This document shows positions 1 through 6,418 of a stretch of 6,553 bases of DNA, one piece after another. Every line of letters starts with the position of its first letter. The first letter of the stretch is position 1. The stretch spans positions 1-6,553 of the IMG/VR virus record IMGVR_UViG_2654587568_000008. One strand, given 5' to 3'. A program made the position numbers and the translations under genes. The notes below the pieces were generated by a model that saw only the letters and a list, made by a program, of their open reading frames with translations, was not told the origin of the DNA and ran no database searches. The stretch is from a virus. Its lineage: Duplodnaviria; Heunggongvirae; Uroviricota; Caudoviricetes.

Positions 1-928
1 GGATTGGATTAGGTTTAATAACATACCTATAATGTTCAGTCATGAGATATCAAGAATAAATGCTACGCCTGGTAACGTTCTTCTACAGAGCACCTCTGCT
101 TTTCCGCGCGTTTTAGTAAAAGCATCTGAGTTGAGAAAGGTTTTAGTTATACGTTCTTTTGAGCCTGATGATCACTTAAAGTTCATATTAGAGAACGCAA
201 TTGAGATATTTAAAAAACAGATGCCAGATCTTGATTGCGAGATTATTGATGTTAGATCGAAAGCTGAGTTTATTGATGCTCTAAATCAATATCAAGGTCA
301 TATTCTTGTTATGGATTGTCATGGAAACCATGATGGCAATGGGAGTCATGGATGGTTAATAATAGGTGAGGATAAAGTGGACACTTGGAGTTTGAGAAAA
401 ATAGCAAGAATTCCTCCTATCGTAATTCTGAGTGCATGTTTAACATCTGCCCTAAGTGGTTCTCATGCCTCTGTTGCTAATGGCTTCGTTATAAGTGGTG
501 CATTAAGTGTCATCGGAACATTACTGCCTGTAAATGCGATAGACTCTGCTATTTTTGTAAGTCGGTTGATCTACCGGTTTTACGAGTTTCCTTCGACGCT
601 ATCTACAAATTTTACACATGTTAATGTAAGGCTTTTTCTTTCTGTTTTTCTTAGGATGTCCTATGCAAGCGATTTAATAAGAGGATTTTTATCTGAAGAT
701 TTGATACCGAATAATTCATGGAAGAAAGATGCAGTTGACATTAACATGTATATAAACATGCTTCACCATGATTGGTATGATTATGTAATTAACAAATTGA
801 CGATGTTAACGGGGCTCACGAAAAAAGATGTACTTGATTTTATCGATAGAAAATTATTCATAACCGAAACTATGTGCTATAGCCAAATTGGATTTCCAGA
901 TGCAATCACAATTAGTCTTAAAGATTGA
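1..928 (+). CDS. CHAT/caspase-like (His-Cys dyad) protease-domain protein, probably 5'-partial (reading frame open from window edge; first in-window ATG at 32; stop TGA 926-928)
   Basis: Frame beginning at nt 2 has no stop before ATG 32, so the ORF may continue upstream, and there is no Shine-Dalgarno before ATG 32. Translation contains ...HILVMDCHGNHDGNG... (His-Gly), about 40 residues later ...PPIVILSACLTSALSG... (Cys), then ...ANGFVISGALSVIGTLLPVNAIDSAIF..., the layout of the CHAT/caspase catalytic core. The gene is much more AT-rich than the rest of the window. Family call is by eye, not HMM. Confidence 0.6.
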   Translation, partial: DWIRFNNIPIMFSHEISRINATPGNVLLQSTSAFPRVLVKASELRKVLVIRSFEPDDHLKFILENAIEIFKKQMPDLDCEIIDVRSKAEFIDALNQYQGHILVMDCHGNHDGNGSHGWLIIGEDKVDTWSLRKIARIPPIVILSACLTSALSGSHASVANGFVISGALSVIGTLLPVNAIDSAIFVSRLIYRFYEFPSTLSTNFTHVNVRLFLSVFLRMSYASDLIRGFLSEDLIPNNSWKKDAVDINMYINMLHHDWYDYVINKLTMLTGLTKKDVLDFIDRKLFITETMCYSQIGFPDAITISLKD

Positions 929-4120: not shown

Positions 4121-4168
4121 TTTGCTGCTCCTCATCATATCGACCCTGCAAGGTCGGTTGGTTTCTCC

Positions 4169-4257
4169 ACAAAACAGAGAAGAACACCTGCGGTGGCAGC
4201 CGCCCGGATGGATTGGGTTATGAGCCCGTCGTCCGGTGATGCTCTTCTCTGTTTTGT
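4169..4257 (-). repeat. 15-bp perfect inverted repeat ACAAAACAGAGAAGA (4169-4183) / TCTTCTCTGTTTTGT (4243-4257) enclosing a 59-nt GC-rich, internally structured loop; long stem-loop in the yfdP 5' leader
   Basis: Arms are exact reverse complements. The loop contains further short hairpins (GCGG/CCGC 4190-4203, GGGTT/GAGCCC 4215-4227). It sits between the DicF-like terminator and the yfdP ribosome-binding site. Confidence 0.6.
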
Positions 4258-4325
4258 AAAAAGAGCGGTACCAGCCGGAAGCAAGTGTACAAACTGGTAC
4301 CGCCAAAGCAGTGGCTGTTGTGGTG
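4258..4325 (-). ncRNA. Candidate DicF-like prophage sRNA with its intrinsic terminator (stem GCGGTACCAG / CTGGTACCGC at 4265-4303, then TCTTTTT)
   Basis: Minus-strand sequence ...CUGCUUUGGCGGUACCAGUUUGUACACUUGCUUCCGGCUGGUACCGCUCUUUUU resembles the E. coli DicF core as I recall it (UUUGGCGGUAUCAGUUUUAC...GCCGCCCUUUUU). A 10-bp GC-rich stem followed by a U tract is directly visible. Location in the early-left leader of a lambdoid immunity region parallels dicF in Qin. Not confirmed by covariance search. Confidence 0.4.
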
Positions 4326-4714
4326 GGGTTGTCACTCAGGCGTATGGTCAACCTGACAATCCGGTGTCCTCAACGGGGAAAGAGTAACCCCGCCATACTT
4401 ACCGCCGCGCCATTTCGCGGATTACCACAACGCTGAGAGCACTTAGCCAGTTACGGCACCACACTTTGTCGCGGCTCCATAAATGCCCTCATCGTTGCAC
4501 CCTGGTCTCTTCCCAGGCGTCAAACCGAATCGCCACGCTGGTTAGGCGTCTTATCAGCATCATCATTGACTTGCACATTCCGGCTACCTGGTTTGTTTGC
4601 CCGAGCAAGGAGTGGATTGTCCCCTTTAACGTCCCCAGACCGCTAACGACGCATGTGCCATACGCCGTGTTACAACCAAATTTTGTTAGTACCTTGTTTG
4701 TAGGTCTGGAAAGA

Positions 4715-4767
4715 AAGATAAAATGAAGTTGCGCATTATGCAAGTGTTTTTATTGCGAGATATGCAA
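4715..4767 (-). promoter_or_regulatory. Candidate OL/PL: two 15-bp operator sites TTGCGCATTATGCAA (4729-4743) and TTGCGAGATATGCAA (4753-4767), centres 24 bp apart, overlapping a candidate leftward promoter
   Basis: Both sites share TTGC-N7-GCAA with the OR site at 5537-5551. Minus-strand -35-like TTGCAT (4738-4743) and -10-like TATCTT (4715-4720) with 17-bp spacing are weak. An alternative -10 CATAAT (4735-4740) has poor -35 spacing. Confidence 0.45.
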
Positions 4768-4777
4768 TTTGATGGGT

Positions 4778-4802
4778 AATGAAAAGCCACCTTCTGGTGG
4801 CT
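4778..4802 (-). terminator. Intrinsic terminator downstream of cI (stem AGCCACC/GGTGGCT, loop TTCT, followed by TTTCATT on the minus strand)
   Basis: 7-bp stem (4785-4791 / 4796-4802) with 4-nt loop and a U-rich tail, located 22 bp past the cI stop codon. Confidence 0.55.
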
Positions 4803-4823
4803 AATTGATGTTGAGGTAGGGGG

Positions 4824-5516
4824 TTAATTGTGTCGCTTAAGGGTTTGTGACTGACTGATTAAGACCTTTCCAAAGACCATAAACCGGTGTTCGTTTTCGC
4901 TGGTAATTCCCCATTCGCGGTAAATCTGATTATCAGAAATTACCAGCAGTTTATCAGGTATCATTTGCAGTCGTTTGACGTAAATTTTATCATCAAAACC
5001 AAATACATATATACCATCCCCATCAAACTGATTGATACTGATATCAACGAAGATGAGATCTCCTGGCTCAATGGTTGGACACATACTGTCCCCACGAACG
5101 TTGATAACTTTAATGTGATTTGCTGGTCGTCCACCAAACATCGATACAGCATTATCAGTTCTGTATTCAATGGCATGAATCACATCAATGACATCACCGC
5201 CCTGGATAAGGCCATTTCCCGCACTGGCACTGACATCCAGCATTTCAATACGGAATACATCCTTCACCTGCGCAACATCCTCACTAATACTGTTTTTACA
5301 TACAGTATTACTTTTGAGGTCTGAGGTAAAGAGATCAGCAATATCAACACCTAAGCTCCTGGCAATATTACTCAGGGCTTGTTCAGTGAATTGTTTCTGC
5401 TTACCTGTTTCGAGGCGCGAGATATTCGCCGCATCCACTCCTATTGCTTCAGCGAGATCGGCGATTTTCATGTTCTTCGCCTGGCGAAGTTGTCTGACTC
5501 GATTTCCTATGTTCAT
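4824..5516 (-). CDS. cI: CI-type prophage repressor: N-terminal XRE-family helix-turn-helix plus C-terminal LexA-like S24 peptidase domain, 230 aa
   Basis: N-terminus ...MKIADLAEAIGVDAANISRLETGK is a helix-turn-helix. C-terminus carries the GDSM serine motif (VRGDSMCPTIEPGD) and a downstream lysine (IYVKRL) as in LexA/lambda CI, with a candidate Ala-Gly cleavage site (SASAGNG). Divergent from the Cro-like gene. Confidence 0.9.
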   Translation of the reverse strand: MNIGNRVRQLRQAKNMKIADLAEAIGVDAANISRLETGKQKQFTEQALSNIARSLGVDIADLFTSDLKSNTVCKNSISEDVAQVKDVFRIEMLDVSASAGNGLIQGGDVIDVIHAIEYRTDNAVSMFGGRPANHIKVINVRGDSMCPTIEPGDLIFVDISINQFDGDGIYVFGFDDKIYVKRLQMIPDKLLVISDNQIYREWGITSENEHRFMVFGKVLISQSQTLKRHN

Positions 5517-5613
5517 GCGTTTATTACATTTCTTTATTGCGCGTTAAGCAAATCAACTTGCGCAAAATATTTGCGTGAAATAATATGCTCATCACGCAAT
5601 ATGTGGAGGTTAT
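5517..5613. promoter_or_regulatory. OR/PR/PRM divergent control region with repeated TTGCG half-sites
   Basis: TTGCG occurs at 5537, 5558 and 5571, CGCAA at 5561 and 5595. 15-bp site TTGCGCGTTAAGCAA (5537-5551). Palindromes TTGCGCAA (5558-5565), CGCAAA-ATA-TTTGCG (5561-5575) and TTGCGTGA...TCACGCAA (5571-5578 / 5592-5599). Candidate PR: -35 TTGCGC (5558-5563), 17-bp spacer, -10 TAATAT (5581-5586). Candidate PRM (minus strand): -35 TTGCTT (5546-5551), 17-bp spacer, -10 TGTAAT (5523-5528). GGAGG at 5605-5609 precedes the cro ATG. Confidence 0.6.
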
Positions 5614-5874
5614 ATGCAATCACCATTACGGAATGTGCGTAAGGCGCACGGATTTACTTTGCAGCATGTTGCTGCGGGCGTTCAGGTCAATCCAGCGACG
5701 CTGAGTCGTATTGAAAGACTGGAACAAATTCCATCTATCGATCTTGCAGAACGTCTGGCCAATTTTTTTAAGGGTGAAATCAGCGAAATGCAGATTCTTT
5801 ATCCGGCACGTTTTCAATCTAGCCAAAACCAGAATGGGTTTAAACCACAGGAACAGGAGGTAAGCCGTGGGTAA
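5614..5874 (+). CDS. cro: Cro-like helix-turn-helix regulator (XRE family), 86 aa
   Basis: ATG at 5614 with GGAGG 4 nt upstream. Helix-turn-helix ...FTLQHVAAGVQVNPATLSRIERLEQIPS. Divergent from cI across the operator region. Stop TAA at 5872-5874. Confidence 0.85.
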   Translation: MQSPLRNVRKAHGFTLQHVAAGVQVNPATLSRIERLEQIPSIDLAERLANFFKGEISEMQILYPARFQSSQNQNGFKPQEQEVSRG

Positions 5875-6418
5875 GCATCACTGGAAAGTGGAAAAACAAC
5901 CTGAGTGGCACGTGAAAGCTGTCAGAAAAACTATCGCGGCATTGCCTGGGGGTTACGCTGAAGCTGCTGACTGGCTGGATGTAACAGAGAACGCTTTATT
6001 CAACCGCCTTCGTGCAGATGGCGATCAGATTTTCCCGCTGGGATGGGCAATGGTTTTACAGCGCGCGGCTGGCACTCACTACATTGCGGATGCTGTCGCA
6101 CAGTCTGCTGGTGGGGTGTTCGTATCGCTTCCTGAAATTGAGGAAGTAGAGAACGCCGATATAAACCAGCGCCTGCTGGAAGTCATCGAACAGATCGGGA
6201 ATTACTCAAAGCAGATTCGTTCGGCAATCGAAGATGGGGTCGTGGAGCCACACGAGCAGACAGCAATTAATGATGAGTTGTATCTGTCAATTTCGAAGCT
6301 CCAGGAACATGCAGCACTGGTCTACAAAATCTTCTGCGCTCCAGAAAAGAGTGACGCCCGCGAGTGTGCAGCTCCGGGCGTCGTGGCGTTTTGTGTCTGT
6401 GGAGAAACTAACGCATGA
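5867..6418 (+). CDS. CII-like / YdaT-type prophage regulatory protein (putative), 183 aa, GTG start, translationally coupled to cro
   Basis: GTG at 5867-5869 is preceded by AGGAGG (5855-5860) and overlaps the cro stop (GTGGGTAA). Possible helix-turn-helix ...GYAEAADWLDVTENALFNRL. Position immediately after cro is typical of CII/YdaT-like regulators. Family assignment is by position and memory only. Confidence 0.7.
   Translation: MGKHHWKVEKQPEWHVKAVRKTIAALPGGYAEAADWLDVTENALFNRLRADGDQIFPLGWAMVLQRAAGTHYIADAVAQSAGGVFVSLPEIEEVENADINQRLLEVIEQIGNYSKQIRSAIEDGVVEPHEQTAINDELYLSISKLQEHAALVYKIFCAPEKSDARECAAPGVVAFCVCGETNA

Follow-up and report, generated by a model that had tools for sequence, protein, structure and literature searches.

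The question raised by this locus is whether a short pseudo-palindromic motif, repeated on both sides of a cI-type repressor gene, is the operator of that repressor, and whether it defines the immunity specificity of the phage. We analyzed the whole stretch of 6,553 nucleotides, referred to here as the window. On sequence grounds, it is highly probable that the 15-bp pseudo-palindromes are the cognate operators of the cI protein encoded between them, and most likely also of the Cro-like protein. The locus is conceptually a standard lambda-like switch; it is very probably an ordinary lambda-style switch with a binding-site sequence that was previously undescribed for a widespread phage group.

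The gene content supports the operator reading, because a repressor carrying HTH and Peptidase_S24 domains faces a Cro-like gene of the HTH_3 type, and a CII-like gene lies beyond the latter:

4824-5516, minus strand: cI-type repressor, 230 aa; Pfam HTH_3/HTH_26 and Peptidase_S24; PHROG transcriptional repressor / CI-like repressor
5614-5874, plus strand: Cro-like protein, 86 aa; Pfam HTH_3; PHROG transcriptional repressor
5867-6418, plus strand: CII-like regulator of the YmfL / Phage_CP76 family; Pfam PF06892; PHROG CII-like activator

The cI and cro genes are divergent and separated by a 97-bp gap, and the CII-like gene, which starts with GTG, shares its first 8 nt with the end of cro. The repressor comprises an N-terminal HTH domain (residues 3-64, with the HTH_3 match at 7-62) and a C-terminal Peptidase_S24 match (residues 104-218), and its predicted self-cleavage features are an Ala99-Gly100 site, Ser144 within a GDSM motif, and Lys181. 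A PDB sequence search with cI returned no close solved relative, the best match having an E value of ~2e-4. BLASTP of cI against Cro gave no significant alignment; both proteins matched the HTH_3 profile in register, with NISRLE and TLSRIE in their respective helix-3 regions, and the similarity of the recognition helices was read by eye from these in-register matches.

Pattern searching of the whole window revealed three exact matches to TTGC-N7-GCAA against 0.25 expected, and at least three matches were obtained in only 1 of 200 shuffles. These matches, TTGCGCATTATGCAA (4729-4743), TTGCGAGATATGCAA (4753-4767), and TTGCGCGTTAAGCAA (5537-5551), are the three 15-mers claimed by an earlier sequence-only reading of this DNA, and our search placed them at the same positions, all inside the two regulatory gaps that flank the cI-like gene. 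When one mismatch was allowed, the whole-window total was 4 versus 4.9 expected, so that the count alone was not above chance, but all four copies lay within the 213 bp that the two gaps make up together (P ~1e-6). The fourth copy, ATGCTCATCACGCAA (5585-5599), had been overlooked by the sequence-only reading, although the three sites that it listed were all real. Its statement that TTGCG occurs far above chance held for the regulatory gaps, which contained 7 of the 17 copies in 213 bp (binomial P ~6e-7), but not for the window as a whole, where 17 copies on both strands compared with 18.2 expected showed no enrichment. Those 7 copies include the five in direct orientation that had been counted earlier, at 4729, 4753, 5537, 5558, and 5571. 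Literature searches found no mention of the operator 15-mers.

The gap beyond the end of cI contains two of the candidate operators together with the predicted PL promoter and a terminator:

4729-4743: OL site a (PL-proximal operator), TTGCGCATTATGCAA; exact pattern match, with its right half forming the predicted PL -35
4753-4767: OL site b, TTGCGAGATATGCAA; exact pattern match, 24 bp from site a
4715-4743, minus strand: predicted PL; -35 TTGCAT (4743-4738), 17-bp spacer, -10 TATCTT (4720-4715), start near 4707
4785-4802, minus strand: intrinsic terminator of the cI transcript; 7-bp stem followed by a T run (terminator scan)

The terminator is located between the cI stop codon and OL, and a hairpin at this position is maintained in relatives through compensatory changes. 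Of 10 aligned relatives, 9 kept the half-sites of OL site a in the same position, and the AAGATAA sequence at the predicted PL was conserved among relatives. Of 139 unique regions, 128 had two OL sites, and the spacing between them was 22-24 bp in 127 of these 128; the 24-bp spacing reported earlier is therefore correct here, start to start, but is not a fixed value in relatives. A third OL site ~24 bp leftward (centre near 4712) was absent, both by reading of the sequence and in a one-mismatch search.

The gap between cI and cro contains the following elements:

5537-5551: cI-side OR site (OR3-like), TTGCGCGTTAAGCAA; exact match, covering the predicted PRM -35 and spacer
5557-5565: invariant CTTGCGCA(A) block; predicted PR -35 (TTGCGC, 5558-5563), perhaps also one half of a weak middle operator (5558-5572)
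5585-5599: cro-side OR site (OR1-like), ATGCTCATCACGCAA; one-mismatch match, overlapping the predicted PR -10 and start
5581-5586, plus strand: predicted PR -10 TAATAT, 17 bp after TTGCGC; start near 5591-5594
5523-5551, minus strand: predicted PRM; -35 TTGCTT (5551-5546), 17-bp spacer, -10 TGTAAT (5528-5523)
5605-5609: cro Shine-Dalgarno sequence GGAGG

The OL/OR reading is supported because the motifs lie in the cI-cro gap and just past the cI terminator, the places anticipated for OR and OL, where they overlap the inferred -35 and -10 hexamers. The OL/OR architecture proposed earlier was borne out in that sites occur on both sides of cI, but the second full OR site and the conserved half-site/octamer had not been recognized. 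None of PR, PRM, and PL was called by a consensus promoter scan, because TTGCxx agrees with TTGACA at only three of six positions. The only call that the scan made in OR, a minus-strand promoter (5607 to 5580, TCCACA-16-TATTAT), was rejected because it is built on the non-conserved region of the cro Shine-Dalgarno sequence. No Shine-Dalgarno sequence was found upstream of the cI ATG, and the predicted PRM start falls on the A of this codon (5516), which would give a leaderless cI mRNA.

A first locus search in viral contigs returned solely cI proteins that were 99-100% identical and was therefore useless for footprinting; relatives came instead from searching genome contigs, from tblastn against phage records, and from a reverse pattern search. 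Among relatives with cI 67-100% identical, the half-sites were invariant and the 6-7 central bases variable. Across 12 OR regions (cI 50-100% identical), TGCG/GCAA, CTTGCGCA, and ATGC/GCA were invariant while the intervening bases varied, and OL behaved likewise. The cI-side OR site retained TGCG and GCAA around six variable central bases in all 12 loci, and C44-A51 of the CTTGCGCA(A) block were invariant. The right half of a 15-bp middle OR site (5558-5572) was not conserved across relatives; since the middle element is conserved only as a half-site, a lambda-like three-site OR was not established. At the predicted promoters, T68, A69, A72, and T73 of the PR -10 region were invariant in the 12 loci, and ATTACA and CAT at PRM were invariant or nearly so.

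The two full OR sites, at 5537 and 5585, are exactly 48 bp apart, and 132 of the 142 unique regions had ATGC-N7-GCAA at +48, even though this position had been left unconstrained in the search pattern. The first base of the cro-side site was A in 100% of the 142 regions, which is explained by its overlap with the predicted PR -10 TAATAT. A distance of 48 bp (~4.6 helical turns) does not favour direct cooperativity between these two sites. When the OR pattern was used in reverse to search viral contigs, 201 of 204 instances adjoined a cI of the same family, with the helix [AG][AG]N[ILV]SR[LV]E. Lack of conservation beside homologous repressors had been named at the outset as evidence against the operators; the 12 diverse loci and the reverse search revealed the opposite, with half-site conservation being partly confounded with promoter function and with the shared ancestry of the sequences. 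The resulting operator consensus is T/A-TGCG-N5-(C/T)GCAA, in which the half-site centres are one helical turn apart.

An alternative built on this confounding is that the motifs are promoter elements only (a TTGCxx -35 with neighbouring bases) kept by ancestry, and that the repressor binds elsewhere. At every inferred promoter the -35 does come from the octamer or from a TTGC half-site, the loci in the alignment are interrelated, and the one-mismatch count is not above chance window-wide. We nevertheless consider this alternative highly improbable: the partner GCAA, always 7 bp away, is conserved just as strictly as TTGC but serves no promoter function at OL site b or at the left half of the cI-side OR site, whereas the bases between the half-sites vary freely. 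Moreover, no repeated or palindromic motif common to OL and OR was found other than the 15-bp sites, and a change in the recognition helix is accompanied by a change in the motif.

At PR, the operator could instead be a longer inverted repeat, TTGCGTGA-N13-TCACGCAA (5571-5599), or a 32-nt imperfect inverted repeat across OR; Cro alone, or a dimer or tetramer with a different spacing, would bind it, and the 15-bp reading would then be incidental there. The former has perfect 8-bp arms separated by 13 nt, and the latter is 72% complementary. This possibility also appears very unlikely, in that the left arm TTGCGTGA is unconserved, with unrelated bases in ST64B, the Klebsiella relatives, and the Buttiauxella and Trabulsiella contigs, whereas ATGC-N7-GCAA is retained in them, and no long inverted repeat like that at OR was found in OL. 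It is scarcely credible that the TTGCG copies in direct orientation serve the CII-like protein as activator sites resembling those of lambda CII (TTGC-N6-TTGC): lambda CII binds TTGC direct repeats, direct copies occur at 5537, 5558, and 5571, and a CII-like gene lies downstream of cro, but this protein belongs to the CP76/YmfL family rather than to that of lambda CII, the repeats are spaced by 21 and 13 bp rather than 10, the 5571 copy is unconserved, the inverted partner GCAA is invariant, and a leftward establishment promoter should have its activator sites downstream of cro rather than in OL.

Evidence for a tie between the motif and immunity specificity, as the sequence-only reading had proposed, came from comparison with related phages. 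The motifs fall within an exchangeable immunity cassette (4688-5838). Similarity to phage Ayreon ends at 4687 and restarts at 5839, with flanks that are 96-99% identical (Ayreon, e14), and the Ayreon segment that replaces the cassette encodes an unrelated repressor of e14-type immunity and carries GGTACA-type sites. The Ayreon/cdtI cassette has the same flanks, namely the PL leader as far as 4687 and, starting at 5839, the cII-like gene, and the same layout OL-terminator-repressor-OR-cro, but differs in an unrelated repressor N-terminus and in operators that are GGTACA/TGTACC-type palindromes; at this locus it represents a heteroimmune alternative, in which the repressor of Ayreon is identical to e14 YmfK. 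In phage ENT47670, whose repressor is 50% identical, the motif is shifted to ATGCG-N5-CGCAT, and none of the operator sites was found in phage Turner, whose repressor is 44% identical. The cassette swap, the motif shift, and the lack of sites in Turner all support the proposed tie, and these comparisons showed that the motif, judged by its distribution, follows both the repressor family and the exchangeable cassette. In 2025, the related LLS repressor, which has the mEp460_4F5 repressor as its closest known relative, was described as having an operator specificity that was unknown and likely novel (PMC12315714).

With the 15-bp sites taken as operators, the switch would work as follows. The -35 hexamers TTGCxx would be supplied by operator half-sites, that of PL by OL site a and that of PRM by the cI-side OR site, and the PR -35 by the conserved octamer. 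In the lysogen, repressor dimers on OL sites a and b and on the cro-side OR site would block PL and PR, and filling of the cI-side OR site by excess cI or by Cro would turn off the leaderless PRM transcript. Derepression would follow from RecA-stimulated self-cleavage at Ala99-Gly100 by the Ser144/Lys181 dyad. By analogy with known switches, dimers on the two OL sites, 22-24 bp apart, could plausibly cooperate in pairs, and a loop of ~800 bp between OL and OR is likewise plausible.

Comparison with lambda revealed a shared plan: divergent cI and cro genes, a repressor combining an HTH with a LexA-like S24 domain and an Ala-Gly site, and one pseudo-palindromic operator repeated on both sides of cI and overlapping PR, PRM, and PL (predicted promoters in the present locus). 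Operator pairs ~2 helical turns apart, a leaderless PRM transcript (predicted here), and a cassette exchangeable as an immunity module are likewise common to both. However, the operator here is a 15-bp TTGCG-N5-CGCAA rather than the 17-bp TATCACCGCCAGTGGTA type of lambda, OL has two sites instead of three, and OR combines a conserved half-site with two full sites separated by 48 bp, so that the lambda-type arrangement of three sites in each of OL and OR was not found; lambda, 434, and P22 typically show such an arrangement, but the mechanism does not depend on it. The OL-OR distance is ~800 bp here versus 2.3 kb, rexAB is absent, and CII is of the CP76/YmfL family. There is also no N gene here, the leader ORFs being without a Pfam match, and an N-less organization has been reported for relatives (PMC3851460, PMC12315714).

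Among repressors of known specificity, the closest is P22 C2 (immC), which has the same architecture, the identity to P22-like c2 proteins being ~42%, but the N-terminal DNA-binding domain has diverged and P22 operators are of a different sequence type. The LLS repressor was reported to be 47% identical to P22 C2, mostly in the C-terminal domain (PMC12315714). HK022/HK639 resemble the present locus in a cI that is 43% identical over residues 19-228, in having no N gene, and in a structured RNA directly downstream of PL, but differ in their operators.

The analysis provides a concrete operator consensus and a predicted promoter map for a whole immunity group. Its members include the Stx2-converting phages Stx2a_WGPS2, Stx2a_1447, and phiSTEC1575-Stx2k as well as mEp460, SfII, and ST64B, and the group is found in many prophages of E. 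coli, Shigella, Salmonella, Citrobacter, and Klebsiella. The repressors of mEp460, SfII, and ST64B are 84-96% identical and carry the same recognition helix. Cross-immunity among prophages should be predictable from the consensus, which may also be used to design reporter and induction assays in toxin-converting phages and could add an orthogonal repressor/operator pair for synthetic circuits.

Outside the immunity cassette, the 5' end of the predicted PL transcript is occupied by a further element:

4495-4674, minus strand: structured RNA, leader of the PL transcript; covariance model R1, 142.6 bits

This leader RNA is conserved, pseudoknotted, and ~180 nt long, with 96.8% of cells paired and compensatory changes in 12 of 28 pairs. 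It starts ~35 nt past the predicted PL start (~10 nt after the -10 in L106 and L136), and lambdoid, P1-like, and Uetakevirus phages carry it as a portable 5' leader. An Rfam search of the whole window with E values up to 1 gave no match, the leader RNA included; the element is absent from the RefSeq annotation, and literature searches with a 19-mer from it found nothing. HK022 and HK639 gave only tRNA and STnc100 matches to Rfam, which contains no put family; because of this, the absence of the leader RNA from Rfam says nothing about its relatedness to put.

The leader RNA has only a first-stem motif, ACGGCG-N-CATGCGTCG, in common with putL of HK022 and HK639. In contrast to put RNA, which is ~70 nt long in HK022 and 126 nt in HK639, the leader RNA extends to ~180 nt with a pseudoknot and has no second copy downstream of PR. 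Covariance model R1 detected neither the HK022 nor the HK639 put RNA, and with filters off it returned only noise in HK022. We tentatively suggest, giving it somewhat less than an even chance, that the leader RNA represents a polymerase-modifying antiterminator RNA of a new and larger class, or else a ligand- or factor-sensing leader. If so, a classical repressor/operator set would be combined with RNA-only elongation control of a new type in an N-less early-left operon.

Downstream of the leader RNA, a terminator-like hairpin followed by a U tract is present at 4262-4304 on the minus strand.

The window spans 6.5 kb of a lambdoid prophage and represents its early regulatory region. Its identity was 99% to phages PhiR40_1, mEp460, and phiSTEC1575-Stx2k, approximately 97% to Stx2a_WGPS2 and Stx2a_1447, 90% to Shigella phage SfII, and approximately 73% to Salmonella phage ST64B. 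Among 5,426 complete E. coli genomes, 907 had places covering at least 80% of the window query. The genes are as follows:

5516–4824, minus strand: cI-type repressor with HTH_3/HTH_26 and Peptidase_S24 domains
5614–5874: Cro-like HTH_3 protein
5867–6418: CII-like protein of the Phage_CP76/YmfL family
32–928, plus strand: C-terminal 298 aa of a homologue of BovA (Borvo anti-phage defence, CHAT domain; PADLOC E = 7e-139)
Leftward operon: yfdP, yfdQ (DUF2303), an HD-domain yfdR-like gene, two DUF551 genes, and excisionase

The CII-like ORF has a GTG start 8 nt ahead of the cro stop codon (overlap 5867–5874), which suggests that the two genes are translationally coupled. The BovA ORF covers PADLOC profile positions 416–715 of 720. 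The window's left edge truncates the gene, which seems to be a defence gene near the prophage excision end.

The sequence-only reading had interpreted three 15-bp TTGC-N7-GCAA sites as operators flanking cI, and all three were found at the positions it gave: OL site a (4729–4743), OL site b (4753–4767), and the cI-proximal OR site (5537–5551). The window was expected to hold 0.25 copies of this motif, and three were reached in 1 of 200 shuffles. The accompanying claim that TTGCG is far above chance did not hold window-wide (17 copies vs. 18.2 expected) but did hold for its clustering: the two regulatory gaps, 213 bp in total, hold 7 of the 17 copies (P ~6e-7). When one mismatch was allowed, TTGC-N7-GCAA had only four matches in the window, all inside these gaps (P ~1e-6). 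The fourth, the cro-proximal OR site ATGCTCATCACGCAA at 5585–5599, is new, at a distance of exactly 48 bp from the site at 5537. The original observation was confirmed, and its operator interpretation was supported and extended.

Comparison loci encoded cI proteins 96, 94, 93, 84, 76, 71, and 69–67% identical to that of the window and came from Shigella, Citrobacter, Salmonella phages ST64B and F1055, Klebsiella phage 1 LV-2017, and Escherichia phage Eeyore, with further loci on genome or metagenome contigs assigned to Pseudescherichia, Klebsiella spallanzanii, Buttiauxella, and Trabulsiella. A motif search beside these homologous repressors revealed that the OR sites were kept in all compared loci (cI 96–67% identical): the cI-proximal site as TTGCG-N6-GCAA, the block CTTGCGCAA 5 bp beyond it, and ATGC-N7-GCAA at +48 from it, while the central 6–7 bases of the sites varied freely. 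Most compared loci had two OL sites at 22–24 bp spacing; K. spallanzanii had one, the second was degenerate in C. amalonaticus, and none was found within 200 bp in the Pseudescherichia contig.

A reverse search of viral contigs with TTGCG-N6-GCAA-N5-CTTGCGCA, pooled with the loci collected earlier, yielded at least 204 instances. Among the matches listed, the adjoining leftward ORF was a cI of the same family as that of the window in 201 of 204 instances, and the adjoining cI proteins, with 47 distinct N-termini, all carried [AG][AG]N[ILV]SR[LV]E. In 132 of 142 unique regions among the matches listed, the +48 site, left unconstrained by the pattern, differed from the motif only by the A at position 1. 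In 128 of 139 such regions, the 160 bp beyond the cI stop codon held exactly two OL sites, spaced by 24 bp in 52 regions, by 23 bp in 50, and by 22 bp in 25.

Promoters of cro (PR), cI (PRM), and the leftward operon (PL) were predicted from the sequence, and conservation in the relatives agrees with the assignments:

Predicted PR: −35 TTGCGC at 5558–5563, 17-bp spacer, −10 TAATAT at 5581–5586, start near 5591–5594
5605–5609: cro Shine-Dalgarno GGAGG, with the cro ATG at 5614
Predicted PRM, other strand from PR: −35 TTGCTT at 5551–5546, 17-bp spacer, −10 TGTAAT at 5528–5523
Predicted PL: −35 TTGCAT at 4743–4738, 17-bp spacer, −10 TATCTT at 4720–4715, start near 4707
4785–4802: terminator of the cI transcript, ahead of OL

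In each predicted promoter, an operator half-site or the conserved octamer would supply the −35 element. At PR, the predicted −10 and start lie under the cro-proximal site, which accounts for the invariant A at position 1 of that site; the cI-proximal site overlaps the predicted PRM −35, and OL site a the predicted PL −35. A consensus promoter scan of the window called none of the three, because TTGCxx fits just 3 of 6 positions of TTGACA. The predicted PRM start is the A of the cI ATG (5516), and the window sequence has no Shine-Dalgarno upstream of that ATG; the cI mRNA is therefore predicted to be leaderless, as is that of lambda PRM.

The best explanation, which we consider highly probable, is a lambda-type switch with the 15-bp sites as cI/Cro operators. 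Sequence comparison establishes which sites make up the set, that they are conserved, and that they are linked to both the repressor family and the immunity cassette. The promoter that each site would repress can be provisionally assigned from the sequence; SOS induction would cleave cI at Ala99-Gly100 (Ser144/Lys181), binding at OL may be cooperative, and OL and OR may interact by looping. Unlike in lambda, OL has two sites, and 48 bp separate the two full OR sites, which puts them out of phase by roughly half a turn. Between these two sites, conservation extends only to TTGCGCAA; the remainder of a 15-bp site there is unconserved, and a canonical OR2 is therefore not established. That the motifs are promoter elements only would fit their predicted use as −35 elements but leaves unexplained the invariant GCAA partners where no promoter sits. 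It is improbable that a long inverted repeat is the operator instead. OR does contain a perfect 8-bp inverted repeat, TTGCGTGA-N13-TCACGCAA (5571–5599), as well as an imperfect 32-nt one (5535–5601); the aligned Escherichia/Shigella and Citrobacter FP75/C. braakii sequences retain the left arm of the former, more distant aligned relatives lack it, and the 5571–5599 repeat as a whole is not conserved across the relatives. Lambda CII-type TTGC direct repeats misfit the spacing, the conservation, and the CII family in the window.

The link between the operator motifs of this lambda-type switch and immunity specificity, also drawn in the sequence-only reading, was supported by comparison with phage Ayreon. 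Similarity to Ayreon ends at 4687 (99%) and restarts at 5839 (96%), so that OL, the terminator, cI, OR, and most of cro form one exchangeable cassette containing the motifs. The repressor of Ayreon (locus L097, 1560–2465) is identical to YmfK of the E. coli K-12 element e14 (L320, 4600–5535), and GGTACA/TGTACC-type palindromes occupy the place of the window's operators between the same flanks. The difference is a heteroimmune cassette swap with boundaries at 4687 and 5839. The latter junction falls within the end of cro, just upstream of the cII-like start.

Cronobacter phage ENT47670 (L095) has a repressor of 50% identity with a changed recognition helix, DVGNLSRLERG, and in its OR and OL regions ATGCG-N5-CGCAT replaces TTGCG-N5-CGCAA. 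It is a natural specificity variant usable for mapping the residue that reads the outer operator base. An N-like gene is annotated beside its repressor. At the locus of phage Turner (repressor 44% identical), neither TTGCG-type nor ATGCG-type sites were found. For the related LLS repressor, operator specificity has been described as unknown and probably novel; the nearest known relative of LLS is the mEp460_4F5 repressor, and the nearest one with known specificity is that of P22, at 47% identity (PMC12315714, 2025). Our literature search found no paper containing the window's operator sequences.

The switch is useful, testable, and unsurprising; the adjacent leader RNA is the less ordinary object of the window. 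The 590 nt between PL and yfdP hold no Pfam-recognisable ORF and, as RNA, fold far better than shuffles (z = −4.45). Three elements were identified:

4495–4674, minus strand: conserved structured RNA of ~180 nt at the 5' end of the predicted PL transcript
4262–4304, minus strand: terminator-like hairpin, 13-bp stem then CUUUUU, downstream of the leader RNA and before yfdP
4165–4262, minus strand: hairpin with a 25-bp closing stem (z = −7.1), directly after the terminator-like hairpin and before yfdP

The 5' arm of the 25-bp hairpin includes the U tract, and the two hairpins are therefore alternatives, as in an attenuator. Alignment of 35 leader RNA representatives (<85% mutual identity) revealed a five-helix structure including a pseudoknot, with 96.8% pairing (27–51% in slid controls) and compensatory changes at 12 of 28 pairs; G-U pairs identify the PL transcript as the sense strand. 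RNAalifold also predicted an invariant long-range GCACAU/AUGUGC pairing that competes with the first hairpin. The 19-mer GGUAGCCGGAAUGUGCAAG is invariant and present in >120 viral contigs.

The leader RNA lies at PL transcript 5' ends in lambdoid phages of several immunity types: in Ayreon, in Klebsiella phage 1 LV-2017, and at 20 of a further 79 loci. It also occurs between a tRNA and ban in P1 and upstream of tRNA-Arg and a small gene in Uetakevirus phages. A tRNA gene adjoins it in the same orientation in 6 of 34 representative loci (L098, 1687–1762; L099, 1428–1504; L100, L103, L116, and L133): tRNA-Met upstream in P1-like elements, and tRNA-Arg(UCU) 70–120 nt downstream in Uetakevirus-like ones. 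An Rfam search left it unmatched, and RefSeq annotated it in none of the 40 records listed of 1,834 E. coli genomes carrying the element.

The first-stem motif ACGGCG-N-CATGCGTCG has a single copy in the window; putL of HK022 likewise contains it once, and the annotated putL-like RNA of HK639 has one copy at its 5' end. The leader RNA covariance model detected neither the HK022 nor the HK639 put RNA. Our tentative working hypothesis is that the leader RNA may be a put-related but much larger processive antiterminator, which would fit the suggestion that N-less relatives use a put-like mechanism (PMC12315714). Loci without the 180-nt RNA carry a different conserved ~65-nt stretch directly downstream of PL, containing ..CATCCGGTCATTCGTATGCCACCGGCGGCTACTTCGTGGGCGTCCTGCCTGTTCG.., common to ST64B (L002, ~2320–2385), F1055, Eeyore, a Buttiauxella contig, and e14 (L320, ~4610–4680), with loci L091 and L094 also cited; PL leader elements may thus come in a second type.
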